Assembly (NCBI RefSeq): GCF_042660085.1
Contig: NZ_JBHSTI010000008.1
Location: 1,050,001-1,082,000 of the forward strand
Direction: 5' to 3'
Source: Longivirga aurantiaca
GTDB taxonomy: Bacteria; Actinomycetota; Actinomycetes; S36-B12; CAIYMF01
Length of the DNA stretch: 32,000 nucleotides
The position numbers and the translations under genes were made by a program. This document shows positions 7,653 through 31,909 of this stretch, in pieces. The stretch's first letter is position 1; each line of letters starts with the position of its first letter. The notes under the pieces are model-generated. The model was not told where the DNA came from and did no database searches. It saw only the letters and a list, made by a program, of their open reading frames with translations.

Positions 7653-8186
7653 ATGCACTGCCCGTTCTGCCGCCACACCGACTCCCGCGTCGTCGACTCC
7701 CGCAGCGACGGCGACGGCACGAGCATCCGCCGTCGCCGGCAGTGCCCGGAATGCGGCAAGCGCTTCACCACGGCCGAGACGGTCACGCTCACGGTCGTGA
7801 AGCGCAACGGCGTCACCGAGCCGTTCAGCCGCGCCAAGGTCGCCAGCGGCGTCCGCAAGGCGTGCCAGGGCCGTCCGGTGAGCGAGGACGACCTCGCGCT
7901 GCTGGCCCAGGCGGTGGAGGAGGCCGTCCGCGCGAGCGGGTGCGCCGAGATCGGCAGCCACGACGTCGGCCTCGCGATCCTCGGCCCGCTGCGCGACCTC
8001 GACGAGATCGCCTACCTGCGGTTCGCGAGCGTCTACCGGGCGTACGAGGGCCTCGAGGACTTCGAGGCCGAGATCGCCCTCCTGCGCGCCGAGCGAGAGC
8101 TCGGGCCCGATCTTCGCACCGGCCGCCGAGAGGCCGCCGGACGCGAGCGCGACCGTGCTGACGAGCTCAGCACCACCTCGCCCTGA
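7653..8186 (+). CDS. nrdR: Transcriptional repressor NrdR (zinc ribbon + ATP-cone)
   Basis: In-frame part of ORF 7491..8186. The ATG at 7653 has GGAAGGAGG 8 nt upstream. [17 protein letters not shown]...[17 protein letters not shown] is the canonical NrdR zinc ribbon, followed by an ATP-cone ([16 protein letters not shown]...). Confidence 0.95.
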
Positions 8187-8391
8187 TCCGCGTTTCAGGG
8201 CCCCCACCAGAACCACGGCTCCTTCCCCTGCCGGTACGACCGCGCACGACCTGAAAGACCAGCAGGACCGCATACAGGAAGACCGCGAGAACACAGCAGT
8301 TCCAGGGCATATGGGCACTGCACCAGACGTTGAACAAGCAGGACTCGAACAAGCTCCCCACGGGGGATCGAGCCGGTCAGTGGAGGAACGC

Positions 8392-11262: not shown

Positions 11263-11370
11263 TGTCGTCGGTCATTCGATGTCCCGCTCACGCGGGCGCT
11301 GAATGACCACCCTCCGGTCAGCAATGTCCCGGAAACGGTCAATGTGACATTGCGACCATCAGGTCGGTAA

Positions 11371-11410
11371 GTGGGAGGCCTCCGCGAAGGAGGCCTCCCA
11401 CTTGCTTTCG
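11371..11410 (+). terminator. Rho-independent terminator (presumably nrdJ)
   Basis: Perfect 13-bp stem GTGGGAGGCCTCC-GCGAA-GGAGGCCTCCCAC, followed by TTGCTTTCG. Confidence 0.7.
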
Positions 11411-15059: not shown

Positions 15060-15075
15060 TGCAGAGAGAAGTCAC

Positions 15076-17880
15076 GTGAGCACCGTCAAGCGCAAGCTGA
15101 TCGAGGTCGCCCTGCCGCTGGAGGCCATCAACCGCGAGTCCGCGCGCGAGAAGTCCATCCGTCACGGTCACCCTTCCACCCTTCATCTCTGGTGGGCCCG
15201 ACGACCGCTTGCCGCTGCGCGGGCCGTACTATTCGCGCAACTCGTTGATGACCCCTCTGCGCGGCCGGCTGAGTTCCCCACAGACGAAGCTCAGGCCGTG
15301 GAGCGCAAACGCCTCTTCGGCATCATCGAGAGACTTGTTGACTGGGACAACATCAACGACGAATCGCTGTTCCGAGAGGCACGTCAGGAAATCCTCAGGT
15401 CAACTGGCGGTCGTCCGCCGACGATCCTTGACCCCTTCGCCGGCGGAGGTTCCATTCCCCTGGAAGCTCAGCGACTTGGCTTGGAGGCGCATGCCTCGGA
15501 TCTCAATCCAGTCGCGGTGCTGATCAACCGAGCGCTTATCGAGATCCCGCCGTTGTGGTCGGGTGTGCCCCCAGTCTTCCCTGGGGCGTCCGACTCCCGC
15601 ATGGGCGCGTGGACTGGCACTACCGGTCTCGCGGAGGATGTCCGGCGGTACGGCCAATGGATGCGCGACGAAGCGGAACGCCGGATCGGGCACCTGTACC
15701 CGAAGGCGAAACTCGGCGACGGCACTGAGGCGAATGTCATCGCCTGGATTTGGGCACGGACGATCACCTGCCCGAACCCTGCCTGCGGCATCGAGATGCC
15801 GCTGGCGCGGTCCTGGTGGCTGGGTAAGAAGAAGGGCAAGGAAGCCTTCGTCGTACCCGAGGTCGTGACGAAGAGCGATGGAACGCGCCGCGTCGAGTTC
15901 GCTATTGGCCATGACGTGCATGCTGGCCCCTCGGGCGCTGCCGATGGGACGGTGACGCGCACCGGTGCCGTCTGCGTGGCATGCGGCACCGGCGTGCCAC
16001 TCTCATACGTGCGCGACGAAGGCAAGTCTGGTCGAATCGGCACTCGACTCATGGCCATAGTTGCCGAGGGTGATCGTCGTCGCCTGTATCTCCCACCTAC
16101 GCCCGAGCAGGAATCGGCAGCGGACGTGGCCGTACCTGCGGATGTACCTGAAACGGACTTGCCCGATGCTGCCTTGGGGTTTCGCGTTCAGGGCTACGGG
16201 ATGCGACGCCACGTGGATCTGTTCACAGCGCGTCAGCTCACAGCGATGACGACTTTCAGCGACTTGATCGGCGAGGCCCGCGAGCGTGTGCTTGCTGACG
16301 CCACCGCACACGGCATGACACAAGATGATCGGAGCCTTGAGGTCGGCGGAACGGGTTCGGCCGCCTACGCCGACAGTGTTGCTGTGTACCTGGCATTGGT
16401 CCTTGGGAAGGTAGCCGATATTGGCAACGCACTTGTGAGCTGGAAGCCGAGCATGGATCAGGCGATTCATCTCTTCACCCGCCAAGCCATCCCGATGTTG
16501 TGGGACTTCTCCGAGACCCCGGTCCTCAGTGATCGACATGCCGGCGGATACACAGTGTCGTTGGGGAACGTCGCGAAGGCGATTCCTAACGTGCCGCCCG
16601 GGTCGCATCGCGGGCATGTCACCCAAGCAGATGCCGCGAAGCGTTCGTACGAATCGGTTCTAGTCGCTACCGACCCGCCCTACTACGACAACGTGGGGTA
16701 CGCGGACCTCTCCGACTTCTTCTATGTTTGGCTCCGGCGTTCCCTGCTCGGGATTCTTCCCACCACCCTTGCCACAATGCTGACTCCGAAGGCGGACGAG
16801 CTTGTGGCTGAACCCTTTCGGCATGGTGGTGCTGCCTCTGCAGAGCGCTTCTTCGAGGAGGGGTTCCGGGACGTCTTCGCTCATATTCGCAAGGACACGC
16901 CCAACGACCTCCCAATCACAGTGTTCTACGCGTTCAAGCAGTCGGACACGGATGTTGAGGGCGTCGCTAGCACGGGATGGCAGACGCTGCTCGAGGGAAT
17001 GCTCAGTTCCGGTTGGGAGGTCACTGCGACATGGCCGGTGCGAACGGAACTGGGTAACCGAATGCGGAGTATTGATTCCAATGCGTTGGCGTCCTCCATT
17101 GTTCTGGCATGTCGGCCGAGGTCGGCTTCCGCTGAGGCGGTTACACGACGTGCCTTCATCGCCAGGCTGAAGGAGGAACTCCCTGCTTCGTTGCGCGTGC
17201 TCCAGCAGGGCAGCGTGGCACCGGTGGATCTGGCGCAGGCTGCCATCGGGCCCGGCATGGCTGTGTTCTCGCGGTACACCAAGGTCGTTGAAGCGGATGG
17301 CTCCGACATGTCCGTCCGCACGGCACTTGCCCTGATCAACCAGGTTCTCGACGAAGTGCTGACGGAGCAGGAAGGTGACTTCGATGCCGACACCCGATTC
17401 TGCGTGAAGTGGTTCACCCAGTTCGGGTGGAATGAGGGCACCTCGGGCGAGGCGGATGTTCTCGCTCGCGCCACGAACACGTCCGTCGAGGGACTTGCCC
17501 GAGGCGGCGTCTTCAAGGCTGTTGCGGGGAAGGCACGGCTGTTGGGCCCAACCGACCTGGCTGAGGACTGGGACCCGATGGCGGATGATCGGGTCAGCGA
17601 TTGGGAGGTTGCGATTCGGCTGGCTAAGGCGCTTAGCGAGCAGGGTATGGAACGGGCGGCCGCACTTATGGCAACTGCTGGTGCGCGACGTGATCTGGAT
17701 ACGGTCAAGGAGCTCGCCTACCTGCTCTTCAGCCTGTCGGAGAAGAAGGGCTGGACGCAGACAGCCGTCCTGTTCAACGGCCTCGGAACCGCCTGGAACG
17801 ACGTGGAGAATGCCGCGCGAACCGCTGCCGGCCGGCAGGTTGTGGCCCAAGATGAGTTGACGTTTGACGACGAGAACTGA
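15076..17880 (+). CDS. DUF1156-type DNA methyltransferase (DPPY amino-methyltransferase, N6-A or N4-C)
   Basis: ORF 15076..17880. GTG start 16 nt after the upstream stop codon. The N-terminus KLIEVALPLEAINRESAREKSIRHGHPSTLHLWWARRPLAAARAV is characteristic of DUF1156. SAM motif I is DPFAGGGSIPLEA (aa 119-). Motif IV is TDPPYYDNVGY (aa 532-). Confidence 0.9.
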   Translation: MSTVKRKLIEVALPLEAINRESAREKSIRHGHPSTLHLWWARRPLAAARAVLFAQLVDDPSARPAEFPTDEAQAVERKRLFGIIERLVDWDNINDESLFREARQEILRSTGGRPPTILDPFAGGGSIPLEAQRLGLEAHASDLNPVAVLINRALIEIPPLWSGVPPVFPGASDSRMGAWTGTTGLAEDVRRYGQWMRDEAERRIGHLYPKAKLGDGTEANVIAWIWARTITCPNPACGIEMPLARSWWLGKKKGKEAFVVPEVVTKSDGTRRVEFAIGHDVHAGPSGAADGTVTRTGAVCVACGTGVPLSYVRDEGKSGRIGTRLMAIVAEGDRRRLYLPPTPEQESAADVAVPADVPETDLPDAALGFRVQGYGMRRHVDLFTARQLTAMTTFSDLIGEARERVLADATAHGMTQDDRSLEVGGTGSAAYADSVAVYLALVLGKVADIGNALVSWKPSMDQAIHLFTRQAIPMLWDFSETPVLSDRHAGGYTVSLGNVAKAIPNVPPGSHRGHVTQADAAKRSYESVLVATDPPYYDNVGYADLSDFFYVWLRRSLLGILPTTLATMLTPKADELVAEPFRHGGAASAERFFEEGFRDVFAHIRKDTPNDLPITVFYAFKQSDTDVEGVASTGWQTLLEGMLSSGWEVTATWPVRTELGNRMRSIDSNALASSIVLACRPRSASAEAVTRRAFIARLKEELPASLRVLQQGSVAPVDLAQAAIGPGMAVFSRYTKVVEADGSDMSVRTALALINQVLDEVLTEQEGDFDADTRFCVKWFTQFGWNEGTSGEADVLARATNTSVEGLARGGVFKAVAGKARLLGPTDLAEDWDPMADDRVSDWEVAIRLAKALSEQGMERAAALMATAGARRDLDTVKELAYLLFSLSEKKGWTQTAVLFNGLGTAWNDVENAARTAAGRQVVAQDELTFDDEN

Positions 17881-17891
17881 CGGGACAGACC

Positions 17892-20800
17892 ATGGCATTG
17901 AGTAACCGCGATCGAGTTGGTCGCGGCTTTGAGCTCCTAGCCGAAGGGCTTGAGCCTTTCGTCGACCCCCGCATGTCGCGTGCCGCTGGGACTGTGGGCG
18001 AAGACTGGGCGAAGTTGCTGGAGGCTCGTGACGCTGCCAAGCATGGGTCTCGCAAGGTTTACGAGAAGAGCGACCCGCAGGTGCTGTTGCGCGTACTCAC
18101 GGAGGAGTGGCGGGTCTTCAAGGACGAGCTCTCGAGGGCGGATCAGACTTTCGCATCCGAGCTGCGGGCGACGCGAAACGACTGGGCCCACAACAAGCCC
18201 TTCTCCGGTGATGACACCTATCGTGCTCTGGACACGATGGAGCGTCTGCTGACGGCGGTCGGAGCGGTGTCGCAGGCGGATGAAGTTCGTCGGATCCGCG
18301 CTGACCACCAACGCTCCACGTTCGAGGCGGAGACGAAGCGGCTGGTGCGGTCGCAAGAGGCGACCGTGTCGGTGGCAGGGCAGGGGCTCAAGCCGTGGCG
18401 GGAGGTGCTGGCACCTCACGCTGACGTTGCGACGGGCAACTTCTCTGCCTCAGAGTTCGCCGCCGACCTGCACATGGTGGCTTTCGCAACGGGTGACCAG
18501 ACCGTCGGCGAAGAGTATGCCGACCCGCACCAGTTCTTCCGCCGAACCTTCTTGACCGAGGGCCTGCGCGAGCTGCTGGACCGCGCAGTCAGACGCATGA
18601 GTGGTGATGCCAATGCCAGCCCCATCATCAACCTGCAGACCAACTTCGGTGGCGGTAAGACCCACTCAATGCTTGCGTTGTGGCACCTCCTCTCCGGAGC
18701 ACAGGTCGGGTCGCTGACCCAGGAGGTACAGGATCTCGTTGCAGACCGTGCCTTGCCGCCGTCGGTGCGCCGGGTCGCGCTAGTCGGCACTCACATGTCT
18801 CCCGGAGCACCGACCATCAAGGCGGATGGCACGGAGGTGCGCACGCTCTGGGGCGAGCTGGCCTGGCAGCTGGGTGGTGCCGAAGCCTTCGCACTCGTCG
18901 CCGAGGCCGACGCAACGAGCACCAATCCAGGTGACGCGCTCCGGCAGCTGATCGCGTCGTACTCGCCGTGCCTGATCCTCATTGACGAATGGGTGGCCTA
19001 CGCCCGGCAGTTGTGGGGCCGGGAAGACCTACCGGCTGGCACGTTCGACACCCAGTTCACCTTCGCGCAGTCGCTGACCGAGGTAGTCAAGACGGTGCCC
19101 GGCGCCATGCTGGTTATCTCGATCCCCGCATCTCACGACCCCGACCGCGATAGCGGATCGAGTGGTTCAGCCATCGAGGTCGGCGGTCCGAACGGCCAGG
19201 AAGCCCTGCAGCGTCTGCAGAACGTGGTTCGTCGCGTCGCTGATCAATGGCGGCCGGCCAGCTCGCAGGAGTCGTTCGAGATCGTCCGCCGGCGCCTGTT
19301 CCAGGAACCGGATGCCCAGGCGCAGTCCGACATCAGCGCTGTGGCCCGGCAGTTCACCCAGTTCTACGCCCGGCACCCGGGGGAGTTCCCGCGCGAGGTC
19401 GTTGACCCGGCGTATGAGCAGCGGATCAAGGCTGCCTACCCTCTTCACCCGGAGCTGTTCGACCGGCTGTACGAGGACTGGTCGACCCTGGAGCGGTTCC
19501 AGCGCACCCGCGGAGTTCTGCGGCTGATGAGCTCGGTTGTACACGCTCTGTGGGTAGCTCAGGACGCGTCGCCGATGGTTCTTCCGGGAACTGTGCCGCT
19601 CGACGTGCCGACGGTGACGAGCGAGATCACGCAGTACCTGCCGGACTCGTGGAAGCCGATCATCGACACGGACATCGACGGGGCAGGATCGACTCCGGCG
19701 AAGATCGATGCCGAACGTCCGACGTTCGGCCAGCGGGCGCTGACCAGGCGTCTGGCGCGTGCGATCTTCATTGGTTCAGCACCTACGCTTCGCTCGGCTC
19801 ACCGAGGTGTGGAGCGGCAGCGGATCTGGCTGGGCACGGCGGTCCCTGGCGACACCGTCGGCAACTTCGGTTCAGCGATCGACTTGCTCTCGCAGCGGGC
19901 GACGTACCTCTATGTCGAAGGTGCCAGGTTCTGGTACGACACCCAGGCGTCGGTGACGCGCACTGCCGCTGACTACGCGGACGGTCTGCGCGATCGACCC
20001 GAAGAGGTGTGGAAGGAGATCGTGGATCGCCTCCGGGCGAGCGAGGCGAGGTACCGCGGCGGCTTCGCGGGCGTTCACGTGGCCCCGGACTCGACCGCAG
20101 AGATCCCAGACAGCGAAGACGTCCGCCTGGTCGTGCTGCATCCTTCGCAGCCCCACTCTCGGGGCTCTGGCGACTCGCCGGCGATGCTGTTCGCCACCGA
20201 CGCTTTCGAGCACCGGGGGACGAGCCAGCGCACGAACCGCAACATGCTGGTGTTCTTGGCACCGGACTCCAAGCGCCTTGACGAACTGCAGGAGGCTGCT
20301 CGCGACTACCTCGCGTGGTCCTGGGTGGCCGACAGGCAGGAGGAGCTCAACCTCTCGCCTCAGCAGGTCAAGCAGGTCGAGGCAAACAGCAAGCGGTCAG
20401 ATGAGGCCGTGACTGCTCGGATTGCCCAGGCCTATCACTGGGCCTTGGTACCCGAGCAGTCCGATCCCACGCGGCCGGCCACTATCGCGGTCGAGAAGGC
20501 GGACGGCGCGAACGAGCGTCTCGCCGAGCGGGTGACGGAGAAGCTGAACCGGTTGGCGCTGCTCGCCGGCTCAGTCGCGGCCCGAACGATCCGTCTCGAC
20601 CTCGATCAGAAGCTCAAGACGGTGTGGGATCGCGGGCACCTCTCTGTCGGCGACCTGTGGTCGTACTACTGCCGGTATCCCTACCTCACACGCCTTCGCG
20701 ATCGCACGGTTCTCGACGAAGGCGTTCGGTCGACACTGACCTGGATGACGTGGGAGACCGAGGGGTTTGCGCTCGCGGACTCGTACGACGAAGCGAGTGG

Positions 20801-21233
20801 TCGCTACATCGGGTTGGTCCTGCCGGGCGGCGACTCCTACTTCGGGCAGATCACCGACTCCACCTTGCTCGTCTCCCCAGAGGTGGCGGCGCGGCAGCTC
20901 GAGGAGATCGTGCCGCCTCAGCCGGCTCCGGTGGATCCGAACGATCCCGACGACCCGAACCCTGTCGTACCGACACCCCCCGTTCCTCCCGTGGCGTCGA
21001 ACACCCGCTTCTTCGGTGTGTTCTCGGTTGATCCGGAGCGGTACGGGCGTGACTTCACGAGACTCAGCCAGGAGGTCTTGCAGCAGCTCACTGCGGTTGA
21101 CGGTGTGGAGCTGGAGATCCAGGTGGAGATTCATGCCAGGCGTGCTGACGGGTTCCCGGACGACAAGGTGAGGACGGTTCTGGAGAACGCTCGGACCCTG
21201 CGCTTCGATCAATCGTCGTTCGAGGACCAGTAG
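17892..21233 (+). CDS. DUF499-family (BrxC/PglY-like) P-loop ATPase with N-terminal Swt1-like HEPN domain
   Basis: ORF 17892..21233. ATG 11 nt after the methyltransferase stop codon. The N-terminal ~140 aa carry an R-x4-H motif (ELRATRNDWAHNKPF). Walker A: NFGGGKTHSMLALWHL. Walker B: CLILIDEW. A Pro-rich linker precedes the conserved C-terminal module. Confidence 0.88.
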   Translation: MALSNRDRVGRGFELLAEGLEPFVDPRMSRAAGTVGEDWAKLLEARDAAKHGSRKVYEKSDPQVLLRVLTEEWRVFKDELSRADQTFASELRATRNDWAHNKPFSGDDTYRALDTMERLLTAVGAVSQADEVRRIRADHQRSTFEAETKRLVRSQEATVSVAGQGLKPWREVLAPHADVATGNFSASEFAADLHMVAFATGDQTVGEEYADPHQFFRRTFLTEGLRELLDRAVRRMSGDANASPIINLQTNFGGGKTHSMLALWHLLSGAQVGSLTQEVQDLVADRALPPSVRRVALVGTHMSPGAPTIKADGTEVRTLWGELAWQLGGAEAFALVAEADATSTNPGDALRQLIASYSPCLILIDEWVAYARQLWGREDLPAGTFDTQFTFAQSLTEVVKTVPGAMLVISIPASHDPDRDSGSSGSAIEVGGPNGQEALQRLQNVVRRVADQWRPASSQESFEIVRRRLFQEPDAQAQSDISAVARQFTQFYARHPGEFPREVVDPAYEQRIKAAYPLHPELFDRLYEDWSTLERFQRTRGVLRLMSSVVHALWVAQDASPMVLPGTVPLDVPTVTSEITQYLPDSWKPIIDTDIDGAGSTPAKIDAERPTFGQRALTRRLARAIFIGSAPTLRSAHRGVERQRIWLGTAVPGDTVGNFGSAIDLLSQRATYLYVEGARFWYDTQASVTRTAADYADGLRDRPEEVWKEIVDRLRASEARYRGGFAGVHVAPDSTAEIPDSEDVRLVVLHPSQPHSRGSGDSPAMLFATDAFEHRGTSQRTNRNMLVFLAPDSKRLDELQEAARDYLAWSWVADRQEELNLSPQQVKQVEANSKRSDEAVTARIAQAYHWALVPEQSDPTRPATIAVEKADGANERLAERVTEKLNRLALLAGSVAARTIRLDLDQKLKTVWDRGHLSVGDLWSYYCRYPYLTRLRDRTVLDEGVRSTLTWMTWETEGFALADSYDEASGRYIGLVLPGGDSYFGQITDSTLLVSPEVAARQLEEIVPPQPAPVDPNDPDDPNPVVPTPPVPPVASNTRFFGVFSVDPERYGRDFTRLSQEVLQQLTAVDGVELEIQVEIHARRADGFPDDKVRTVLENARTLRFDQSSFEDQ

Positions 21234-21238
21234 GCGCG

Positions 21239-23416
21239 TTGCCCGAGAACGCGGTAACGCGCGAGGAGCTCAGGTCGCTCCTGGCGCGCGCACAGATGCT
21301 TGCCGCTCAGGCGGAGTCGATCACGTCCACCAGTGCGGGGTCCTCTCGCGAAGTCGCGGACGGCTATCGGGCTGTCGTCGCACGCATGGTGGCTCGTGAG
21401 CTCGGCTCGATACCTGTGGCGAGACTCAGGGATGTCACGGAGGGTCGGCTGCGTCTGGGGCCGATCGAGTCGCGCTACAAGACGGTCGCTCAGCTGCAGA
21501 ATGTGTCCGCCTACACCCTCATGCAACTTCCTGGCGTCGGCGAGGCTACTGCTAGTCAGGTTGTAGCGGCCGTCCACACGGTGGCTCGCACGGTGGAGGA
21601 CGGGTTCCGGCTGCGCATCGACCTGGACGCGAGCGACCCAGTCACGACCGATCTGTTGCGTTCGACGTGGCGCTACGACTCGGTGACGCGGGCGGTGGCC
21701 CCGGTTAGGGAGCCGGCCGGGCGGATGAGCAACGAACTCGAACGTCTCGCCGTCGAGGCGAAGCCGGCTGGCTACGGCGCACTGCGCAGCTTGTTCACCA
21801 GCCGTGCGAAGAAGGACGGCGCCCGCGCCGCGGTGGAGCGCATCGAGCAGTGGATGCGGTGGAGCGACAGCCCTGCTAACGCAGCCGCGTGGACAGGAGC
21901 CATTGCCGCGATCCAGGCTCCGACACCTTCGGCTGCCGACGCTTGGAGAGCCTTCGAGACGCGATCGCCGGAGTTCTACGGCGCCTTGGGTGAGGTGGTC
22001 GATCTCCGGCTCGACGTCGGCTCGGCACAGGGCTTCTTGCCAGCGGAGATCGTCGCGAAGGTGGAGGAGCAGCTGCTCGATACGTCGATGCTCAAGGTGA
22101 GTCTGCGCGGCTACCAGTCGTTCGGCGCGCGCTTCGCGCTGGTCCAGAGGAAGGTGATCATCGGCGACGAGATGGGTCTCGGCAAGACGATCCAGGCGCT
22201 GGCCGTCATGACGCATCTTGCTTCGTCCGGCAAGGCGCACTTCCTCGTCGTGTGCCCTGCCAGCGTCCTGGTGAACTGGATCCGCGAGATCCGTACCCGA
22301 TCCGATCTTCAGGCCTACCAGTTGCATGGCCCGGACACGGCGCGTCAGCAGGGCCTGTGGACGCAGCGAGGTGGCGTGGCGGTCACCACGTTCGAGGGCC
22401 TGCGGCGGCTGTCGCTGCGTGAAGTTCCCCTGCTGGTCGTCGATGAGGCCCACTTCGTGAAGAACCCGACGGCGCAGCGCTCCCAGCTGGTCGCCTCCTG
22501 GATCGCGGGCGCAGAGCGAACGCTGTTCCTGACCGGTACTCCGATGGAGAACCGGGTCGAGGAGTTCCAGAACCTCGTCCGCTACCTGCAACCTCAAGTC
22601 GCGAACAGGGTGAATCCGTCGCACGGGCTGGCGGGAGCTGACGCCTTCCGCCGGGCGGTCGCGCCGGTCTACTTGCGCCGCAATCAGGACGACGTGCTCA
22701 TGGAGCTCCCCGACCTGATGTCGGTGGAGGAATGGGAGTCCTTCGGGCCGTCGGAAGCTGCTTCCTACCGGGATGCCGTCATGGGTGGCAACTTCATGGC
22801 GATGCGCCGAGCTGCCTTCGACGCGGTGCCGGTCACCGCGGCGACCAAGATGGCACGGCTGCTCGAGCTGTGCGACGAAGCGGCCGCGAACGGGCACAAG
22901 GTCCTCGTCTTCTCCTTCTTCCGCGACGTGCTGGACAAGGTGGCCGAGTCACTCGGGTCGCGAGCGCACGGACCATTGACGGGGAGCGTGCCGGCGGCGA
23001 AGCGCCAGGCGGTTGTCGATGGTTTCACCGCGGCCTCATCGGATGCGGTCCTTGTCGCGCAGATCCAGGCCGGTGGAGTCGGGCTCAACGTCCAGGCAGC
23101 GAACATCGTGATTCTGTGCGAGCCGCAAGTGAAGCCCTCGGCGGAGGCGCAAGCCATCGCGCGCGCGCACCGCATGGGTCAGGTCAGGAAGGTCCAGGTG
23201 CACCGTCTCCTTGTCGAGAACAGCGTCGACCAGCGAATGCTGGAGATCCTCGGAGCGAAGCAGGCGTTGTTCGACGAGTACGCGGCCAAGAGCGATCTGG
23301 CATCCGCCACCCCCGACGCGGTCGACATCTCCGAGACCGAGCTCGCGAAGACCATCGTCGCGGCAGAGCAGGAGCGCCTTGCTCGCGAGCTCATGGAGCA
23401 GCAGGCTTTGCAGTGA
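21239..23416 (+). CDS. Second SNF2-family helicase with helix-hairpin-helix-containing N-terminal region
   Basis: ORF 21239..23416. TTG start 5 nt after the upstream stop codon. Motifs: I IGDEMGLGKTIQAL, II LVVDEAHFVKN, III LFLTGTPMENR, V AGGVGLNVQ, VI AQAIARAHRMGQ. The N-terminal ~290 aa include LMQLPGVGEATASQVVAAV (HhH-like). Confidence 0.9.
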   Translation: MPENAVTREELRSLLARAQMLAAQAESITSTSAGSSREVADGYRAVVARMVARELGSIPVARLRDVTEGRLRLGPIESRYKTVAQLQNVSAYTLMQLPGVGEATASQVVAAVHTVARTVEDGFRLRIDLDASDPVTTDLLRSTWRYDSVTRAVAPVREPAGRMSNELERLAVEAKPAGYGALRSLFTSRAKKDGARAAVERIEQWMRWSDSPANAAAWTGAIAAIQAPTPSAADAWRAFETRSPEFYGALGEVVDLRLDVGSAQGFLPAEIVAKVEEQLLDTSMLKVSLRGYQSFGARFALVQRKVIIGDEMGLGKTIQALAVMTHLASSGKAHFLVVCPASVLVNWIREIRTRSDLQAYQLHGPDTARQQGLWTQRGGVAVTTFEGLRRLSLREVPLLVVDEAHFVKNPTAQRSQLVASWIAGAERTLFLTGTPMENRVEEFQNLVRYLQPQVANRVNPSHGLAGADAFRRAVAPVYLRRNQDDVLMELPDLMSVEEWESFGPSEAASYRDAVMGGNFMAMRRAAFDAVPVTAATKMARLLELCDEAAANGHKVLVFSFFRDVLDKVAESLGSRAHGPLTGSVPAAKRQAVVDGFTAASSDAVLVAQIQAGGVGLNVQAANIVILCEPQVKPSAEAQAIARAHRMGQVRKVQVHRLLVENSVDQRMLEILGAKQALFDEYAAKSDLASATPDAVDISETELAKTIVAAEQERLARELMEQQALQ

Positions 23417-23425
23417 CCCGCCGCA

Positions 23426-23848
23426 CTAGGGCGTCAAGTCTGCGTTGGCGGCTTTGGTCAGCCTGATGGGTCGTCCGCCCGCGACGGTGACTAGGCCTCG
23501 CCGGACCAGCGCCGGAAGAACCAGTTCACGATCAGGGCCGGACAGTGAACGGCGCACGTCCTCTCCGAGTTGTATCCGCCGCAGAAGCCGAGCCTGAGCC
23601 GTGGTGAGCTCCGAGGCTTCCGGCTCGTCCGCAGTGCCCGCGATCGTCACCTCAGCAAGCAGGTCCCGGGGGTGAACTCCCAACGCTTCGCACATGTGGG
23701 CGAGGTGTCGCAGCGTCAGGTTTCCGTCATCCCCGCCAGCTTCGATGCGCCGGATGACCTGGAAGTTGACGCCTGTGAAGTACGCGAGCCGGCGCTGTGA
23801 GAGTCCCCGCTCGGTGCGCAGCCGGGCCACCAGTTCCGCGTTGATCAT
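23426..23848 (-). CDS. XRE-family helix-turn-helix protein
   Basis: ORF 23426..23848(-). N-terminus: LVARLRTERGLSQRRLAYFTGVNFQVIRRIEAG (HTH_3 pattern). Its start overlaps the upstream stop codon (ATGA). Confidence 0.8.
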   Translation of the reverse strand: MINAELVARLRTERGLSQRRLAYFTGVNFQVIRRIEAGGDDGNLTLRHLAHMCEALGVHPRDLLAEVTIAGTADEPEASELTTAQARLLRRIQLGEDVRRSLSGPDRELVLPALVRRGLVTVAGGRPIRLTKAANADLTP

Positions 23849-25011
23849 GGGAGCGCCGTGGCCGTGATGCCGAGGCGTGAAAGCCAGCGGCGGGGATGGA
23901 CGTGCCGATCAGCCCTGCGGCCGTGGACGCAGATCCCGAAGTCGAGGGACGCTTGGTTGAGGGCTGTGGACACGGCTCGGTCGCTGAGTGGGAGCAACTT
24001 GTCCTTGCCCTCGGCCCCCGATCGTCGGCGCAGGTCGGTCTGGGCCTTGGCGGCGCGCGCGGTGTTGTCGAGAAGGGGCACCGTGCGATGGGCGCCCAGC
24101 CGAAGGCCGTCGGGAGCCACATCGTCAAGGGTGAGGGCGAGCATCTGGAGGATCCCTACCTGCTGGGCGGCCAGGGCTACGACGATGGCGCGGTGAGGTT
24201 GCCGGTAGCCGACGAGGTCCTCGTCGATCGTGATCGGGTCGACCAGCTGGCGTTCGCTGCTGCACAGCAGTACCGGCGTGTCGGTCTTCAAGTAGATGTC
24301 GTGGTGCCAGGCGGCAAGCTGGAGCGCGCGGATACCGATCACGAGTGCGTCGTCGTGTGGCGCGGTTCCGGTGACCCATTCGACGAGGTTGGCGAGGACG
24401 TCGATGGTGGCGCCGTCTCGGTCTAGCGTGTCGTCGCAGTGCGCCCAGGTATGGCCGAAGTGCGCTTCGACCGCTCGATAGGTCTCTGAGTCTGTGCTCG
24501 CCTCGAGGGTTGTACGGAATCGGTCGAACGGGATACGCGATGCGTCATCGAGCCCGAAGCCCAGGCGTACGCCCGTGGCAGGTTGGCGCATGCTGGGTTG
24601 CGGGACGTCGGAGTAGCGCATGGGGTGCGCCTTCGCTCGCGCGAGGATCCGCTCGAAGTTGTCCGAACGGGGTGGCCGGTGGAGGAGCCAGAGCGGTAGG
24701 GACGCGGCCTTGGCGAGGGCGACGAGATGCCCGAGGGTGAGCCTGGTGAGGTTCTGTGCATCCAGTGCCACGAGGGCAGAGATGTCGTAGGCGTCGAGCC
24801 AGGCCAGCGCGAGGGCGACGTCCTGGTTCTCGTTGCGGCCCTTCCCCGCGACGTCCCGGCGCTTGCCCAGCGCGGACAGCATGTCGCCAGCGATGACGGC
24901 GGACCGTTTGAGGTTGGGTCGGATGTCGAACCACAACGCTGCCCCCGGGCTGGGGAGCCCGAGGGGCAGCGCGGTGGCGACGCCGGTCACGTCGACATGG
25001 TGGGTAGCCAC
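23845..25011 (-). CDS. Hypothetical transposition-accessory protein (N-terminal degenerate TniB/AAA+-like region)
   Basis: ORF 23845..25011(-), GTG start. It occupies the position taken by TniQ/TnsD in this kind of operon. MLSALGKRRDV...ALALAWLDAYDISALVALDAQNL resembles the TniB-family ILxALG...hhhhD(E)xHNL segment, but I see no P-loop. Confidence 0.7.
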   Translation of the reverse strand: MATHHVDVTGVATALPLGLPSPGAALWFDIRPNLKRSAVIAGDMLSALGKRRDVAGKGRNENQDVALALAWLDAYDISALVALDAQNLTRLTLGHLVALAKAASLPLWLLHRPPRSDNFERILARAKAHPMRYSDVPQPSMRQPATGVRLGFGLDDASRIPFDRFRTTLEASTDSETYRAVEAHFGHTWAHCDDTLDRDGATIDVLANLVEWVTGTAPHDDALVIGIRALQLAAWHHDIYLKTDTPVLLCSSERQLVDPITIDEDLVGYRQPHRAIVVALAAQQVGILQMLALTLDDVAPDGLRLGAHRTVPLLDNTARAAKAQTDLRRRSGAEGKDKLLPLSDRAVSTALNQASLDFGICVHGRRADRHVHPRRWLSRLGITATALP

Positions 25012-25012
25012 G

Positions 25013-25792
25013 TCACTTCTTCGGCTTGGGCCTGGGGTATGGGGGCATCAGCGCGGTGGCGGCCCTGGCCAGCGACAGGTCGATCTCAGGAGGAGTGGCG
25101 TCGGGGTCGAGGGCGTGGGTGAGTTCGAGGGTGTGCTGGAGGAAGATCCCCCAGCGGCGGAGGAGCCCGAAGCAGTAGTCCTGATCGATGAGCTTGAGCA
25201 GCTTCGGATCGCTGATGCCGAAGCTGGCGTGCATTCCACGCAGTGCGCGGATCAGGTCATCACCCTTGAGGGCCTGTACGTCGACGGTGGCGATGATGTC
25301 GCCGCGAAGTCGGGCGCTGGTGGTGCTGGCCCGGTCTAGGTCGTCGGAACCGAGCAGGACCAGGGACCAGTTGGCTCCGGGTCGTGCGTGCAGGTACTGC
25401 AGCTGGCTTGCGGCCTTGGTGGTCAGTTCCTGAGCCTGATCGATGACGAGGATGCTCGACTCGTGCCCGAGGGCGTCCACGAGGTCATCCTGCATGTCGC
25501 GGAGTTCGTACTCGTCGCGGTCCCCGAGAACCGCGTCGATGAGGACGGCCATGAGCTTGTTCTCCGACGGGGCGGGCGGCATCGCGACGAAGCTGTATGG
25601 GTGCTGCTGGTCGCTCAGCGCGGCCGCCAGGGCGATGCGCTTGCCGGCGCCCCGTGGCCCGGCGACGACCATGGTGCCGCCGTGGCGAGCGGTGAACCCG
25701 AGGCGTGCTCGGATCTCGGTTGTGGCCGGATGCGGTACGACCGTCGCCACGCCTCGAAGACCGACGGGGAGGTACCGGTCGAGGGCGTTCAT
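25013..25792 (-). CDS. TniB/TnsC/MuB-like AAA+ transposition ATPase
   Basis: C-terminal 259 codons of ORF 25013..26848(-). The ATG at 25792 overlaps the transposase stop codon (ATGA). Walker A: VAGPRGAGKR. Walker B-like: SSILVIDQAQEL. Confidence 0.8.
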   Translation of the reverse strand: MNALDRYLPVGLRGVATVVPHPATTEIRARLGFTARHGGTMVVAGPRGAGKRIALAAALSDQQHPYSFVAMPPAPSENKLMAVLIDAVLGDRDEYELRDMQDDLVDALGHESSILVIDQAQELTTKAASQLQYLHARPGANWSLVLLGSDDLDRASTTSARLRGDIIATVDVQALKGDDLIRALRGMHASFGISDPKLLKLIDQDYCFGLLRRWGIFLQHTLELTHALDPDATPPEIDLSLARAATALMPPYPRPKPKK

Positions 25793-27312
25793 ACCAGCAA
25801 GCCCTGTCCGTGCTCGTCGAAGCCGTTGTCGTCGCGGCGGGGCCGGTAGCTGTCGAGGGCGTCGCTCTGCCCGGTGCGAAGGTCGTCGTCGGGGACGTCG
25901 ACCTCGTAGGCGAACTTGCCGCCGGGAAGCTTGCGCTTGTGCAGCTTGCTGGTGTCGGGGTCCTGCTTGTGGATGCGCTTGACGGACGAGACGTTCTTCA
26001 GAGCACGTGCCTGGTCGGCGCGGCGCTGCTTGAGGAAGGCCTCCTGGTCCTCGGGCTGGAGGTGGTCTGATGGGTAGGCGGTTCCGACGTGCTTGCCGTC
26101 GTGGAAGACCTCGATGAAGTCGCGCATGTGGGGCAGGTAGCGGACCTCGACCTGCTTGCCGATGAGGCGGTCGAGCTCGCCGTGCAGGGTGACGTAGTCC
26201 AGGCTCTTCCAGCGCACGCCTTGCACGGAGACGGTGGCTTTGGAGTCGGAGAGCAGGAAGTCGCACCAGAGCTGGTCGGCGGGGACGGTGACCAGGTCCC
26301 GGGGGTCGGCCTGCCACGCCTGCAGCGGGGTCATGCCCAGGGTGCGCACGACGTGCTCGGTGTTGTACCAGTCCAGCCAGGCCGTGACTCGCTCGACGAA
26401 CGCGACCTCGGACAGGGCGTACTGGGCGCGGTGCAGGGTGCCGCGGACGTCGGTGCCGGAGTCGATGTAGCCCGGCAGGGAGGCCAGGCAGTTCCCCTTG
26501 AAGGTCCGCCAGAACCGCTCGCACCTGCCTTTGAGGTTGGGGCTGTACGGGGGGAGCGGTGAGGGTGTGGTACCCAGTCGCAGGCAGGACTCGGTGACCA
26601 GGGTGGAGAGGAAGTCCTTGCCCTGGTCCCACACGATCCGGAACGGGAGCCCACCGACGCGGGTGTGGCCGTCGGCTGCGGTGCGCTCCAGGATGGCGGA
26701 GATGAACGCGACGCGGACCTCCTCCGCCGACGGGGTGCCGAAGGTGATCACCAGGCTGAGCACGTAGCGGGTCGCATGATCGACGACCACGGTGATGTAG
26801 GGCCGTGTTGCCCGCTTGTGCCCGGTGGGGATCACGTAGATGGGGCACTCGGTGTGGTCGGTCTCGTAGGTGTGGCCGCGCTCGCCGGGGTCCCGCTTGA
26901 GGTAGACGCGTCGCGAGCGCGCCTTGCCGTCACCGTGCCGGATGACAGTCATGGCGTGCTGGCCCAGCAGCGAGTTCACCTTGCGCTGAAATGTGGCCAG
27001 GCTGGGCAGGTTCTTGGTTGCCTTGAGGTTGCGGTACGCCTTGGCGAGGTTCCCTGAGCACCGGGCGACCTCGTTGACGACCTCACCGTCCAGCAGCCAC
27101 CCGTCCTTGGCTTCGGTCTGCAGTTCGCGGTCGTGGCGGGCCGCCCTGAGGGCCGCGACGAGCCTTCTGAGGTGCCGGACTGAGTAGCCGCTGGCTTCGG
27201 CAGCGACGCTGAACAGGGTGCCGTCCAGGTCGACGCCGGCGGCCTCGAGGGCGAATAGTTCGGCGATGACCCTGTCTCGACCATCTCGGTGCAGGGCGGG
27301 CTTGTTGCTCAT
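25789..27312 (-). CDS. DDE transposase, TniA/TnsB/MuA-like (rve integrase core + Mu-transposase C-terminal domain)
   Basis: ORF 25789..27312(-). The ATG has GAAGGA upstream. N-terminal HTH (GYSVRHLRRLV). DDE triad context: YETDHTECPIYV, IVWDQGKDFLS, YSPNLKGRCERFWRTFK. A beta-barrel-like C-terminal region follows (ATVSVQGVRWKSLDYV). Confidence 0.9.
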   Translation of the reverse strand: MSNKPALHRDGRDRVIAELFALEAAGVDLDGTLFSVAAEASGYSVRHLRRLVAALRAARHDRELQTEAKDGWLLDGEVVNEVARCSGNLAKAYRNLKATKNLPSLATFQRKVNSLLGQHAMTVIRHGDGKARSRRVYLKRDPGERGHTYETDHTECPIYVIPTGHKRATRPYITVVVDHATRYVLSLVITFGTPSAEEVRVAFISAILERTAADGHTRVGGLPFRIVWDQGKDFLSTLVTESCLRLGTTPSPLPPYSPNLKGRCERFWRTFKGNCLASLPGYIDSGTDVRGTLHRAQYALSEVAFVERVTAWLDWYNTEHVVRTLGMTPLQAWQADPRDLVTVPADQLWCDFLLSDSKATVSVQGVRWKSLDYVTLHGELDRLIGKQVEVRYLPHMRDFIEVFHDGKHVGTAYPSDHLQPEDQEAFLKQRRADQARALKNVSSVKRIHKQDPDTSKLHKRKLPGGKFAYEVDVPDDDLRTGQSDALDSYRPRRDDNGFDEHGQGLLV

Positions 27313-27466
27313 GGGTCTGGTCCTTCGCTATGCGGGTTGCGGCGGGCAGCGTGGGGGAGCGACTGCTCGCAGCTGACGTGACTGATCGTCGGCGGATCGC
27401 GGCCGGTGGCTTCAGCCCGTCGCCGAGCGGTGTGCGGGCGTTGATGTTCCGTTGGGGCCGGCTGCG

Positions 27467-27940
27467 TCAGGCGGACTTGCTGTGTGCGATGACGCAGGAC
27501 AGCTCAGGTGCGCGGGGGACCAGAACTCGCATCCGAACCACGTCCGGTCCGTGGACGGCTACGGCGCGCGCCCGGAGATTCGCCGCGGCTGCGGCCACCT
27601 GCGCATCGGTGGGCCGGGTGTCGGCCAGCACCGTGTCGGCGATGACCGCTCCGGTGCCGTCGGCCCAGATCAGGTCGGTGGCCTCGGGGTTCAGGCACAG
27701 GTCACGGCCGACGAAGCGCCAGGGCGCGGCTGGTGCGTACAGCCGGAAGTAGCCAGCGACTGCTCCGGCCACGGCCTGCGTGGCCACCTGGGCCGGGATG
27801 CTCTGGCGGGATCCGATGCGCCGCCGGGTCGCCGCCATGACGACGGTGACGTCGGGCGTACTGGTGTGGCTAGCGAGATCGGCGATCACCTCGCGGCAGA
27901 CCTCGGACCTCGTTCGGTGGGGTGCGGGTGCTCTGCTCAC
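27467..27940 (-). CDS. Hypothetical protein, degenerate paralogue of the 28001..28573 PD-(D/E)xK-like protein
   Basis: ORF 27467..27940(-), GTG start, good GC3. It aligns with the neighbouring gene: APAAPWRFVGRDLCLNPEATDLIWADGTGAVIADTV versus APAPPWTFVGAEVTRPGVRFDVLWVHAGTGELMVDEIKTG. The E-x-K is replaced by D-T-V. Confidence 0.7.
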   Translation of the reverse strand: MSRAPAPHRTRSEVCREVIADLASHTSTPDVTVVMAATRRRIGSRQSIPAQVATQAVAGAVAGYFRLYAPAAPWRFVGRDLCLNPEATDLIWADGTGAVIADTVLADTRPTDAQVAAAAANLRARAVAVHGPDVVRMRVLVPRAPELSCVIAHSKSA

Positions 27941-28000
27941 GCACCCCGACAGTCAGCCCCTGCACCCGGGCTGCAGCCGGCTCCGCCCGCTGCGAGGGTG

Positions 28001-28573
28001 TCAGCTCGGGGGAGGAGCTCTCTCGGGCTCCGCCGGCAGCTGCCCGATGCTCCGGTTGCTCGTGAGCGTCCAGGACGTGCTCGGCGCGCGGGTCGAGAGC
28101 GCGCGGACCCGTGCCGAGGCATGCCCGTCCTCGCGCAGCGCACGCAGATACCGCTCAGCCTGAGCGCGTGTGGAGGGCAGAACCACACCGGACTGCCCGG
28201 TCTTGATCTCGTCGACCATCAGCTCCCCAGTGCCCGCATGCACCCAGAGCACGTCGAAGCGCACTCCCGGTCGGGTCACCTCAGCGCCCACAAACGTCCA
28301 GGGAGGCGCCGGCGCCTGCTCGAGGTAGATCAATGCGGCGGCGGTGATGGTCTGGCGGGCCGCACGATCCCGGTACCCGTCGAGCTTCATTCGGTGATCG
28401 ACTGCCGCGATCACTCGGCGCCAGGTCCCTGTGGGGTCGATGCAAGGGTCGTCGGTGGTGCTGAGCAGGTCGGCGATGACTCGATGGGCCAGCTGGCCGA
28501 CCTGGGCGGGTTGTGGCGTCTTCCACTTCCGGGCCATCACCGGGAGCCACCAGATCCGACTGGCACGCGACAA
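28001..28573 (-). CDS. Hypothetical PD-(D/E)xK nuclease-like protein
   Basis: ORF 28001..28573(-). TTG start 6 nt after the upstream stop codon; an alternative ATG lies 12 codons in. Motif chain: E (GAEV) ... D (FDVLWV) ... DEIK (MVDEIKTG). Confidence 0.7.
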   Translation of the reverse strand: MSRASRIWWLPVMARKWKTPQPAQVGQLAHRVIADLLSTTDDPCIDPTGTWRRVIAAVDHRMKLDGYRDRAARQTITAAALIYLEQAPAPPWTFVGAEVTRPGVRFDVLWVHAGTGELMVDEIKTGQSGVVLPSTRAQAERYLRALREDGHASARVRALSTRAPSTSWTLTSNRSIGQLPAEPERAPPPS

Positions 28574-28579
28574 CTGCGG

Positions 28580-28912
28580 TCAGGGCTCGAGCTCGTCCAC
28601 GAGGCCGAGCATGAGGGCGTGGGCGGCCAGCAGCGTGTTCTCCCGCATCCACGAACGGCCTGACAGGCAGTCGCTCCAGTGCTGCCGCGAGAAACCGAAC
28701 GTCCGGCCCAGTGCAGCACCTGGTCCTGCACCGGGCGTGGCGCGAACGAGCAGCAGCAGGGCGATCCGGTGCTGGACGACGGCGGCTCGCTGGGACGCCA
28801 GGTCCCCCAGCGCGGGGAGGTGCACGACTGCCGAGTCCAGGACCCCGAACTCGTGAGGGTCTCGAAAGTAGTCGCGCGGTCGAAGCGTGCGGTGGTGAGT
28901 CTTCTTGGGCAT
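28580..28912 (-). CDS. Small putative HTH protein (110 aa)
   Basis: C-terminal part of ORF 28580..29167(-), from the ATG at 28912 (MPKKTHHRTLRPRDYF...). GRTFGFSRQHWSDCLSGRSWMRENTLLAAHALMLG resembles an XRE-like HTH. The upstream part of the ORF looks non-coding (Ala/Thr/Pro/Gly run). Confidence 0.55.
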   Translation of the reverse strand: MPKKTHHRTLRPRDYFRDPHEFGVLDSAVVHLPALGDLASQRAAVVQHRIALLLLVRATPGAGPGAALGRTFGFSRQHWSDCLSGRSWMRENTLLAAHALMLGLVDELEP

Positions 28913-29310
28913 GCCCACCGTCGTGCTGCGGCCACCCGCTGGGGCAGCCGGCACCGGTCGTGGTGTGCATCCGTCACTGCTGAATGGCAGCACGGCACCG
29001 GCGATTTCGTGGAGTCGGCGAGGAGTCGTCCAGGTGGCTCGCACAGTGGCGGACAACGGCCCCTCCTTCCCGAGTCGGATACCTCCGGGCATCGCCGAAG
29101 CGGTCGCCTCGGCCGCCCCTGTGACCGCTGTCGGCGTGGCGGTCCCCGCGCCCCGGACGCAGGGCACCTAGGCTGGATAGGCACCGCTGTTCGACCGCGG
29201 TGAAGAGTCTCGGGTGGGGCTGTCGTGGGGAAGCGATAGCCCCACCCGACCTCTGTCTAACCCCGTCGAGACCGGGTCACGGAGCGGGCTGCATTGGCCG
29301 CCGCCACTCG

Positions 29311-30688: not shown

Positions 30689-31909
30689 TCAGGCGCTCAG
30701 CGTGCTGGCGCCGTCCGTGGGCAGGAGCTCTGCCGCCAGCAGCGACATCGACGTGAGTATGTCGTTGGGTGAGGCGGCGAGATCGATGTGCCGTACGTGC
30801 AGTCGAGGTCCCTCATCGATGACCTGGTGGGTCCGAGCCTCGGGCGGCCCGAACGCATAGATGAGCCAGGCATCGTCCAGGCCGGTAGCGGTGGCGTAGG
30901 CGTGCAGCTGATAGAGGTCCGGGTTGGCGCCCGGGCCAGTGTCACGCTTGTACTTGACGTCGCCGACGAACCGCCACGTGCCGTGGTGGTGCCATGACAG
31001 GTCCGGCTTGAGACGCACCCGTCCCTTCACATCCAAACGGAGTGGCGCACAGTGGTCGCCGTCGGGGAACTCCTCCGGGCTCAGGTGGGCCGCTTCGCGC
31101 AACGCCGCGCGAATGAAGTCTTCGAAGACAACGGTGAGATCGATGCGCAGCAAGTCCGTTGATGCGTTTCCGGCACCCAGCTCCGGGCTGGCTCCGCTGA
31201 GCAGGAGCCTGGCGAGCTCGACCGCCGGCCGGTAGTAGCCGTTGAGACGGGTCCAGGTGATGCTCGGGATCCGACTGCGGTGCGGCTGGAGCGGTGTGAC
31301 GTCAGGGAAGGAATCCGTGAGGCGACGCAACTCGCGGCGAGTGGCGGTGTCGCGCAGAGGGAGTCGCGCGAGCAGGAGCGCGGCGGAGAGCAGCAGCTGG
31401 TTCTCGGGAATGTCGTGGTCATGCTGGCAGTACTCGAGGGCAAGAGGTGCGCTTAGGCCAGGTCGGCGTTTGAGCTGCTCGGCGAGGTCGATGCGACCAC
31501 GGACGGTCGGCTGGGTATCGCGTACCTCGTGGTAGCCGGCCAGCAGACCGCGGCCAATGGTGCGGCGGATCGTGCGCAGATAGAGGGTGGCGACCGCGTC
31601 GACGACGTCGACGACGTCGACATGGTCGTCGATCGCCGCCTCGCCGTCCCGCCAGTGGTCAGGATCGGTGGCGTAGCCGAGCAGGAACAGGACGCGACTG
31701 ATCGGGATCTTCGGACGGATCACGATCGCAAGCCCATCGACGGTTCCGGCACCGATGATGTTGCCGGGGGTGACGTCGAACAGGTCGTTAGTCCCGGGGC
31801 TCGGCTGGACGGTGGCGGTGAACACGGTCCGCAGCAGGTCGCGCTGCGGGGGTGTGAGCCGCACGCCGGGGGTGGTGGACCACTCAGTCAGCTGGAGTCG
31901 GGTCGTCAT
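30689..31909 (-). CDS. mcrC: McrC-like nuclease subunit of a McrBC-type modification-dependent restriction system
   Basis: ORF 30689..31909(-). McrC-like overall layout, with a C-terminal PD-(D/E)xK motif: RLKPDLSW...WRFVGDVKYK. It is preceded by an overlapping upstream gene on the same strand. Confidence 0.75.
   Translation of the reverse strand: MTTRLQLTEWSTTPGVRLTPPQRDLLRTVFTATVQPSPGTNDLFDVTPGNIIGAGTVDGLAIVIRPKIPISRVLFLLGYATDPDHWRDGEAAIDDHVDVVDVVDAVATLYLRTIRRTIGRGLLAGYHEVRDTQPTVRGRIDLAEQLKRRPGLSAPLALEYCQHDHDIPENQLLLSAALLLARLPLRDTATRRELRRLTDSFPDVTPLQPHRSRIPSITWTRLNGYYRPAVELARLLLSGASPELGAGNASTDLLRIDLTVVFEDFIRAALREAAHLSPEEFPDGDHCAPLRLDVKGRVRLKPDLSWHHHGTWRFVGDVKYKRDTGPGANPDLYQLHAYATATGLDDAWLIYAFGPPEARTHQVIDEGPRLHVRHIDLAASPNDILTSMSLLAAELLPTDGASTLSA

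Follow-up and report, generated by a model that had tools for sequence, protein, structure and literature searches.

We analyzed a 32,000-nucleotide (nt) stretch of the Longivirga aurantiaca genome (hereafter the window; contig NZ_JBHSTI010000008.1, positions 1,050,001 to 1,082,000), in which three adjoining minus-strand genes between positions 27467 and 28912 encode a small protein, a PD-(D/E)xK nuclease and a catalytically dead paralog of that nuclease. The trio probably opens the transposition operon of a Tn7-like element, with the nuclease serving as a non-orthologous analog of TnsA, the 5'-strand nuclease of Tn7, and the dead paralog as its partner subunit. The best-supported description of the whole system is a Tn7-like transposon with a heteromeric transposase, in which the TnsA slot is held by a nuclease of the Cas4/RecB type.

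The three open reading frames (ORFs; 28580-28912, 28001-28573 and 27467-27940, all minus strand) are present and conserved, and each has a third-position GC content (GC3) above 0.8, as for real genes at the 68-70% GC of this DNA (window, 0.61-0.74). The first-pass annotation had given these coordinates and the strand, together with intergenic gaps of 6 and 60 nt; all of this stands except the shorter gap. Homologs and the database gene call place the nuclease start at ATG 28537 (MARKWKTP..., 178 amino acids (aa)) rather than at the alternative TTG 28573, which would give 190 aa. This start widens the spacing from the small gene from 6 nt to about 42 nt and leaves the 60-nt gap between the nuclease and its 157-aa paralog unchanged. 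The trio had also been described as lying just upstream of a transposase gene, and the nuclease gene has this position in 13 loci. The proposed three-gene operon proved to be the 5' part of a conserved seven-gene cassette encoding, in order, the small helix-turn-helix (HTH) protein, the nuclease, the dead paralog, a TnsB-like transposase, a TniB-like ATPase, a 388-aa protein and an HTH_3 protein.

We then characterized the nuclease (28001..28537, minus strand), whose active site is intact. It carries, in order, the motifs AE86, RFD95, VD109-E110-I-K112-TG and Q126-A-E-R-Y130 (QxxxY); the pattern E...D...DEIK reported earlier for the 190-aa translation corresponds to E86, D95 and D109-E110-I-K112. 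The acidic and lysine positions were predicted to be conserved in homologs, and among 157 family representatives they were retained almost throughout (E86 in 152, D95 in 155, D109 in 154, E110 in 155, K112 in 155), as were Q126 (156) and R145 (157). The AlphaFold2 (AF2) model, built on 9 homologs with a predicted local distance difference test (pLDDT) score of 87, consists of a single nuclease domain followed by a disordered tail of about 20 aa. Foldseek ranked ACE1, an Argonaute-associated Cas4-family protein, as the best match (E 8e-5), followed by AddB, AdnAB, Dna2 and the Cas4 protein SSO0001, and VIA-align Z scores were 12.4 for ACE1, 12.1 for AddA, 10.8 for Dna2, 8.2 for Cas4 and 7.9 for RecB. 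Furthermore, a relative (P0029) scored above the gathering threshold of Pfam PDDEXK_1 (24.4 bits vs a cut-off of 22), a threshold that the window nuclease itself did not reach. Together, the QxxxY motif, the fold and the PDDEXK_1 match of this relative place the nuclease in the RecB/Cas4 branch of the PD-(D/E)xK superfamily.

Sequence-level matches were otherwise sparse. Neither the window nuclease nor its paralog matched any Pfam or NCBIfam family; PADLOC returned only a weak Cas4 match (E 0.036), and a PDB sequence search with the nuclease family profile gave nothing meaningful. The four-cysteine Fe-S cluster is absent from the nuclease, which has 1 Cys in 178 aa, and no cas genes were present at any locus read. 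Neither paralog matched the TnsA Pfam models (Tn7_Tnp_TnsA_N and TnsA_C) at E ≤ 1 or any TnsA model in NCBIfam, in agreement with the first-pass remark that neither resembles TnsA in sequence. Similarly, TnsA was not among the matches listed in the fold searches, where the top matches were of the Cas4/RecB type; the nuclease and TnsA may nonetheless share a fold.

Word-indexed searches returned 9 and 5 close homologs, all metagenomic, and a HMMER profile search of 1.84 billion cluster representatives recovered at least 500 nuclease sequences at E ≤ 1e-3 (114 at E ≤ 1e-10). The family is rare in sampled genomes, occurring in 3/401 of the class and 4/401 of the phylum; the hosts that carry a name are Phycicoccus sp. 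Soil802 and, in a second genus, Blastococcus sp. KM273128, and a pattern-based locus search of species genomes found two loci only, in Phycicoccus and Blastococcus. At the nuclease C-terminus (window ~28001-28030), a conserved R-(A/G)-P-P tail follows the disordered linker and may be a docking peptide; it occurs in P0006-P0014, P0022, P0023, P0025 and P0029, that is, in close relatives and some distant ones (27-39 of 157), and is missing from the dead copy.

The next gene (27467..27940, minus strand) encodes the 157-aa paralog. The paralogy had been put forward beforehand as refutable by formal comparison, and the two proteins align significantly, both by BLASTP (E 2e-7, 29% identity over 154 aa) and as family profiles by hhalign (probability 96.8%, E 2.7e-10, 135 columns). 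The paralog was also correctly read as degenerate, carrying RD, TD and AD-T-V-L at the motif positions (E changed to D, D kept), with QxxxY gone; the reported replacement of DEIK by ADTV needs adjustment, as VDEIKTG aligns with ADTVLAD, so that DEIK corresponds to DTVL and the Asp is kept. The catalytic Glu, Lys and Gln are all missing. The AF2 model of the dead copy (pLDDT 67) shows the same order of helices and strands as the nuclease, and its top Foldseek target is again ACE1, at a score that is not significant (E 0.2). The ORF is intact in 5/5 homologs with 53 invariant columns, and its ratio of nonsynonymous to synonymous substitution rates (dN/dS) is 0.30-0.47, measured at a dS of about 1, compared with 0.30-0.51 for the live copy. 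The dead copy is thus under purifying selection at a level similar to that on the live copy.

Across the family, copy number and copy state vary. Only one nuclease gene is present in Blastococcus and in five further cassettes (G671, G382, P0036, L049 and L050), whereas Phycicoccus holds two copies, both with a complete active site. In the clade of the window (the window genome, L001, L002 and L017) the second copy is dead, and a more distant lineage, L048, also pairs a live with a dead copy bearing other substitutions (DVLH). In P0020, which occurs on at least 24 contigs (e.g. L017 8001-9086 and L018 5401-6486), the live and dead copies are joined in-frame into one protein of 361 aa. A maximum-likelihood (ML) tree that included first, second and single copies placed the window clade's dead copies in one strongly supported, long-branched group, and a single origin of second copies was neither shown nor rejected (approximately unbiased test, p-AU 0.17). 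Adjacency, fusion and selection argue that the dead copy is a partner subunit, and from them we infer a live/dead heterodimer in which it is the non-catalytic member. A complex prediction for the pair gave a score of 0.00 in a run made without controls, and counts neither way. When loci are compared over window 25789-28912, the transposase gene shows a synonymous divergence of about 0.55, and the genes for the small protein, the nuclease and the dead copy show about 1.0-1.3, a gap that could stem from codon-bias constraint or from a mosaic history of the 5' part of the operon.

Investigation of the genes downstream of the trio revealed a transposition core. The TnsB/TniA-like DDE transposase (25789..27312, minus strand, 507 aa; Pfam Mu-transpos_C, rve and rve_3) has as its best PDB sequence relatives the TnsB proteins of ShCAST (E 3e-12), Tn6677 and Tn7 (E 3e-4), and is encoded by the one TnsB-like gene that the genome holds. 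It is followed by a TniB/TnsC-like AAA+ ATPase of ~259 aa (25013..25792, minus strand; Pfam AAA_22; start read from sequence), whose ATG overlaps the transposase stop (ATGA) and which is 79-80% identical in L001 and L002. The 388-aa protein (23845..25011, minus strand), of no known family, has the same position in every cassette, and the start of the last gene, which encodes a 140-aa Xre-type protein (23426..23848, minus strand; Pfam HTH_3, 3e-8) and is found in all cassettes, overlaps the stop of the 388-aa gene.

This arrangement recurs in 13 loci, namely those of the window genome (G000), L001, the L002-8 group, L017/18, Phycicoccus L014/L042, Blastococcus L043, G671, G382, G125, the P0036 contig, L048, L049 and L050. 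In each of them the nuclease gene is directly upstream of, and co-oriented with, the gene for the TnsB-like transposase, after which come the AAA+, ~388-aa and HTH_3 genes. Gene order is constant in all loci read, with the second nuclease copy optional and the counterparts of the 388-aa protein ranging over ~355-415 aa, while the flanking genes change entirely; the stop codon of the nuclease gene abuts or overlaps the start of the transposase gene in L049 and L050. On the co-occurrence with TniA/TniB homologs, raised as a question by the first-pass annotation, the nuclease gene is linked to both across these loci and does not travel alone.

No TnsA, resolvase or integrase family appeared in the Pfam lists of the fetched loci, and a scan of island ORFs of this genome yielded none either. 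The cassette encodes no helicase partner, and none of the cassette proteins scanned has a Pfam match to TnsA or to TniQ/TnsD. For the 388-aa protein, Pfam, NCBIfam, PADLOC and PDB (sequence and profile) were all without a match; Atlas gave sub-threshold leads to tyrosine recombinase/ResT (score 0.75), and its family alignment contains no conserved C-terminal Tyr. We regard this protein as a putative target selector or else a new transposition protein of another kind. Beyond the hairpin described below, L002 contains a fragment (8645-8887) with 35% identity to residues 187-268 of the TnsB-like transposase, apparently left behind by an older element that had occupied the same site.

The small first gene (28580..28912, minus strand) encodes a 110-aa protein whose full length of 108-110 aa is conserved at 50-60% in L001, L002 and L017, where gene callers annotated just 72 aa; its dN/dS is 0.34-0.43. 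It had been called an HTH protein. Pfam and NCBIfam gave no match, and the resemblance of its Atlas model to HTH_3 (Xre/Cro) clusters (TM score 0.59-0.63) lends this call weak support; the protein is a probable Xre-type repressor of the operon. A scan for promoters and terminators, not tuned to Actinomycetota, found nothing on the coding strand of the cassette. An inverted repeat, CGTTGTCC...GGACAACG, occurs upstream of the small gene in L001 (~9470-9545) and L002/L005 (~8825-8880), and the window retains one half-site (~29051-29059); the repeat may be an operator.

We also investigated the ends of the element and its insertion site. The left end (11263..11354, plus strand) opens with TGTCGTCGGTCA directly after the stop codon (TGA, 11260-11262) of the gene for a class II (B12-type) ribonucleotide reductase (RNR; 7882-11262), the window reading TGTCGTCGGTCATTCGATGTCC... 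from 11263. It contains the repeats GGTCA-N3/4-ATGTCC at 11270 and 11316 and GTCAATGTGACATTGCG at 11338, as well as sites of the form GTCA-N3-TGACATTGCG, up to 11354. Four same-genus genomes lose similarity to the window exactly at 11263, and the same left end follows the RNR stop in L005 (17969-18060) and G404 (L035, ~510-606). Between L005 and the window, the reductase gene is 94% identical at the DNA level and the cassette ~76%. The base after the RNR stop looks like the precise attachment site of this transposon family.

The sole other exact copies of the end motifs lie inverted and beyond the window, at what would be its positions 45857-45903 (G000:C8:1095857-1095903). Both ends start with TGT and carry repeat arrays in inverted orientation, and they may belong to one element. 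The flanks GCTGA and CTAAC do not match as a 5-bp target-site duplication, and a 7-nt repeat, CTAACCC, flanks only the part from the hairpin to the right end. That hairpin is a 51-nt, host-derived stem-loop (29206..29256, plus strand; located by blastn) with a 17-bp stem and the loop GGGGAA, single-copy in the genome and lying on the upstream side of the small HTH gene at a distance of about 300 nt; it has an invariant top, TGTCGTGGGGAAGCGACA, and 4 compensatory pairs across 10 sequences. In cassette-free relatives it stands 35-40 nt past the RNR stop (beside the RNR gene in G418, G410, G409, G408, G411 and G414), whereas in the window it is shifted by 17.9 kb, and a window-like placement is also found in L001 (9084-9123), L002-8 (L002 9149-9188) and L017/18 (L017 ~6490-6535). 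Rfam detected no family in the whole window, the stem-loop included, which could be a terminator of the reductase gene, a protein-binding or attachment site, or an RNA.

Repeat finding, motif scans and a three-locus alignment revealed no convincing right end between the small gene and the hairpin. With the hairpin standing between the cassette and the inverted end, this copy may be composite or partly decayed; the island may represent two tandem insertions (11264-~29190 and ~29264-45903) with decayed inner ends, or one 34.6-kb element carrying a copy of the host hairpin. The linkage of nuclease and transposase is unaffected by this question; this copy may or may not still be mobile as a 17.9-kb unit. 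Inside the left end, at 11367-11402, a strong GC-rich hairpin is followed by TTGCTTTCG, and other hairpins occupy this place in L005 and G404; the element may thereby supply a substitute terminator for a reductase gene cut off from its own hairpin.

The cargo of the element is defense-like. From the left end to the cassette it comprises a SNF2/NOV_C helicase, DUF1156, HEPN-DUF499 and SNF2 proteins, and past the cassette McrBC, HEPN/RES, DUF2971 and UDG. The first four genes form a block (11490-23416, plus strand: a SNF2/ResIII helicase with NOV_C, a DUF1156 protein, HEPN_Swt1-DUF499 and a second SNF2 helicase) that is shared with L001 at 78% DNA identity and looks like a defense system. A McrC/McrB-like pair lies upstream of the cassette (30689-31909, minus strand, continuing to G000:C8:1081884-1084337), and L048 has McrBC at the same relative position and orientation, though its nuclease is only distantly related.

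Comparison with known systems supports the placement of the element among Tn7-like transposons. A TnsB-type DDE transposase and an AAA+ protein are encoded in one operon, and insertion by the RNR stop is site- and orientation-specific (the window genome, L005 and G404, with 4 relatives lacking the element). TnsA of Tn7 (PF08722/PF08721), the 5'-strand nuclease of TnsAB, is likewise a PD-(D/E)xK enzyme with an acidic/Lys active site; tnsA too adjoins a TnsB-type gene on its upstream side, in one operon with an AAA+ regulator, and each of the two elements has its specific insertion site on the downstream side of a conserved housekeeping gene. The nuclease described here differs in having no TnsA-model match, a Cas4/RecB fold with QxxxY and a live plus dead pair, and in consisting of one ~180-aa domain without the C-terminal TnsC-binding domain; its cleavage activity is predicted. 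With the Cas4/ACE1/RecB family and with AddAB, AdnAB and RecBCD it has in common the nuclease fold and the motifs E, D, ExK and QxxxY. RecB-type nuclease domains also pair live and dead forms in one complex, as in RecB and the dead nuclease-like domain of RecC, a pairing that parallels the nuclease and its dead paralog. Unlike the Cas4/RecB enzymes, however, the present nuclease has no Fe-S cluster, cas genes or attached helicase domain, and is dedicated to a transposon.

Elements of the Tn5053/Tn402 type (TniA-TniB-TniQ-TniR) and CRISPR-associated transposons (CASTs) of type V-K likewise combine a TnsB/TniA-type with a TniB/TnsC-type protein and have no canonical TnsA, whereas the present element has a nuclease in the tnsA slot, no resolvase that could be found, and a 388-aa protein instead of a TniQ match. 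Tn5053/Tn402 and type V-K CASTs transpose replicatively, Tn5053 resolving its cointegrates with a resolvase, and Tn7-like elements without TnsA usually carry one (PMC11406308). Those parts of Benler et al. 2021 that were searched describe an Actinobacteria-dominated, uncharacterized "clade 2" of Tn7-like elements, some branches of which have no tnsA and which is associated with tyrosine resolvases, and contain no mention of a Cas4-type nuclease (PMC8649781). As described there, clade 2 resembles the present element in host phylum, in its TnsB plus AAA+ core, in its defense-rich cargo and in having branches without tnsA, and we assume that the window element belongs to it.

In the mechanism that we propose, the 178-aa nuclease would be made together with the DDE transposase and take the place of TnsA, cutting the 5' strands at the element ends while the TnsB-like transposase would cut and join the 3' ends. 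The element would then exit the donor by cut-and-paste, and on this proposal would need no resolvase. The 157-aa duplicate would act as a non-catalytic subunit bound to the live copy, and the small HTH protein would repress the operon. The reading of the nuclease as a TnsA analog draws on the shared slot, the shared superfamily chemistry, the TnsB-type and AAA+ partners and the lack of any recognized TnsA or resolvase. Neither of the two known ways of handling the Shapiro intermediate, TnsA or a resolvase, is otherwise in evidence for the element (PMC8649781; PMC11406308). Of the three options offered by the first-pass annotation, a novel TnsA analog, possibly heterodimeric, fits the evidence best.

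Several observations weigh against the TnsA-analog reading. Enzymes of the Cas4/RecB type usually act as exonucleases or process DNA ends, and are not typically nicking endonucleases bound to a transposase; cleavage of transposon ends by the present nuclease is a prediction only. In its AF2 model the nuclease is single-domain, with no counterpart of the C-terminal TnsA domain that contacts TnsC. The right end is not cleanly defined, with a host hairpin separating the cassette from the one inverted end that matches, and the ML tree lacks resolution at the deep nodes where first, second and single copies diverge. Furthermore, the 388-aa protein could conceivably supply a resolution function.

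The main rival keeps the nuclease as a core transposon enzyme and moves its action from excision to processing after strand transfer, in line with what enzymes of the Cas4/RecB type do elsewhere. There it might trim the flaps of flanking donor DNA, resect ends for repair, or assist a replicative pathway in resolving its Shapiro intermediate or cointegrate. Its fold, nearest to those of end-processing enzymes (ACE1/Cas4, AddAB, Dna2 and RecB), and its QxxxY motif, typical of that clade, speak for such a role, and the closest solved relative of the TnsB-like protein comes from a type V-K element that is TnsA-less and replicative. The position of the gene in the tnsA slot and its translational coupling to the transposase in some relatives count against it, and neither a resolvase to complete a replicative pathway nor a helicase partner in the cassette was found; we consider processing after transfer unlikely, although it is the strongest of the alternatives.

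Two further alternatives concern the trio itself. If the 157-aa gene were a functionless, decaying duplicate, the nuclease would act alone or as a homodimer. The existence of single-copy cassettes (Blastococcus, G671, G382, P0036, L049 and L050) shows that a partner is not obligatory for the family, and the mediocre AF2 model of the dead copy agrees with decay. An ORF intact in all five homologs with 53 invariant columns, a dN/dS of 0.30-0.47, an in-frame fusion on at least 24 contigs and the retention of a dead second copy in the L048 lineage make decay improbable. Still less probable, to the point that we give it little weight, is an autonomous defense, toxin-antitoxin or addiction module at the head of the transposon, made up of the HTH protein, the nuclease and the dead paralog. 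Such a module would be at home in an island rich in defense genes (SNF2/DUF1156/DUF499, McrBC and HEPN/RES, with GmrSD and BREX in relatives), the PADLOC match to Cas4 (E 0.036) hints weakly in the same direction, and an HTH protein beside an enzyme is a common toxin-antitoxin layout. In the 13 loci, however, the nuclease never occurs without the transposase, even as the cargo on both sides changes completely; the order of small gene, nuclease and transposase is fixed, single-copy forms overlap the start of the transposase gene, and the family is as rare as the transposon (3/401 genomes of the class). Because this linkage is invariant, the separate small defense or toxin module suggested by the first-pass annotation is unlikely.

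A broader version of the TnsA-analog reading, which we advance tentatively as falling a little short of probable, is that a whole lineage of actinobacterial Tn7-like elements uses a new heteromeric transposase. In it, a Cas4/RecB-type nuclease with no sequence relationship to TnsA would have replaced that protein. It would have passed from a single copy through a pair and an obligate heterodimer of live and dead subunits to a fusion, supporting resolvase-free cut-and-paste transposition directed to the nucleotide after the class II RNR stop. The literature searched contained no account of such a nuclease in the tnsA slot.

The means by which Tn7-like elements without TnsA escape cointegrates, or resolve them, are an open question, and the cointegrate problem also sets limits to the engineering of RNA-guided transposons that lack TnsA (PMC11406308). 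If the reading is true, the second nuclease of a heteromeric transposase was invented more than once within the PD-(D/E)xK superfamily, and the present family would offer a compact, independent solution in the form of a Cas4-type nuclease of ~180 aa, either alone or paired with a dead copy. At least 500 so far nameless sequence clusters would thereby gain an annotation, and the series of single copies, two live copies, live plus dead copies and fusion constitutes a tidy natural case of pseudo-enzyme evolution.

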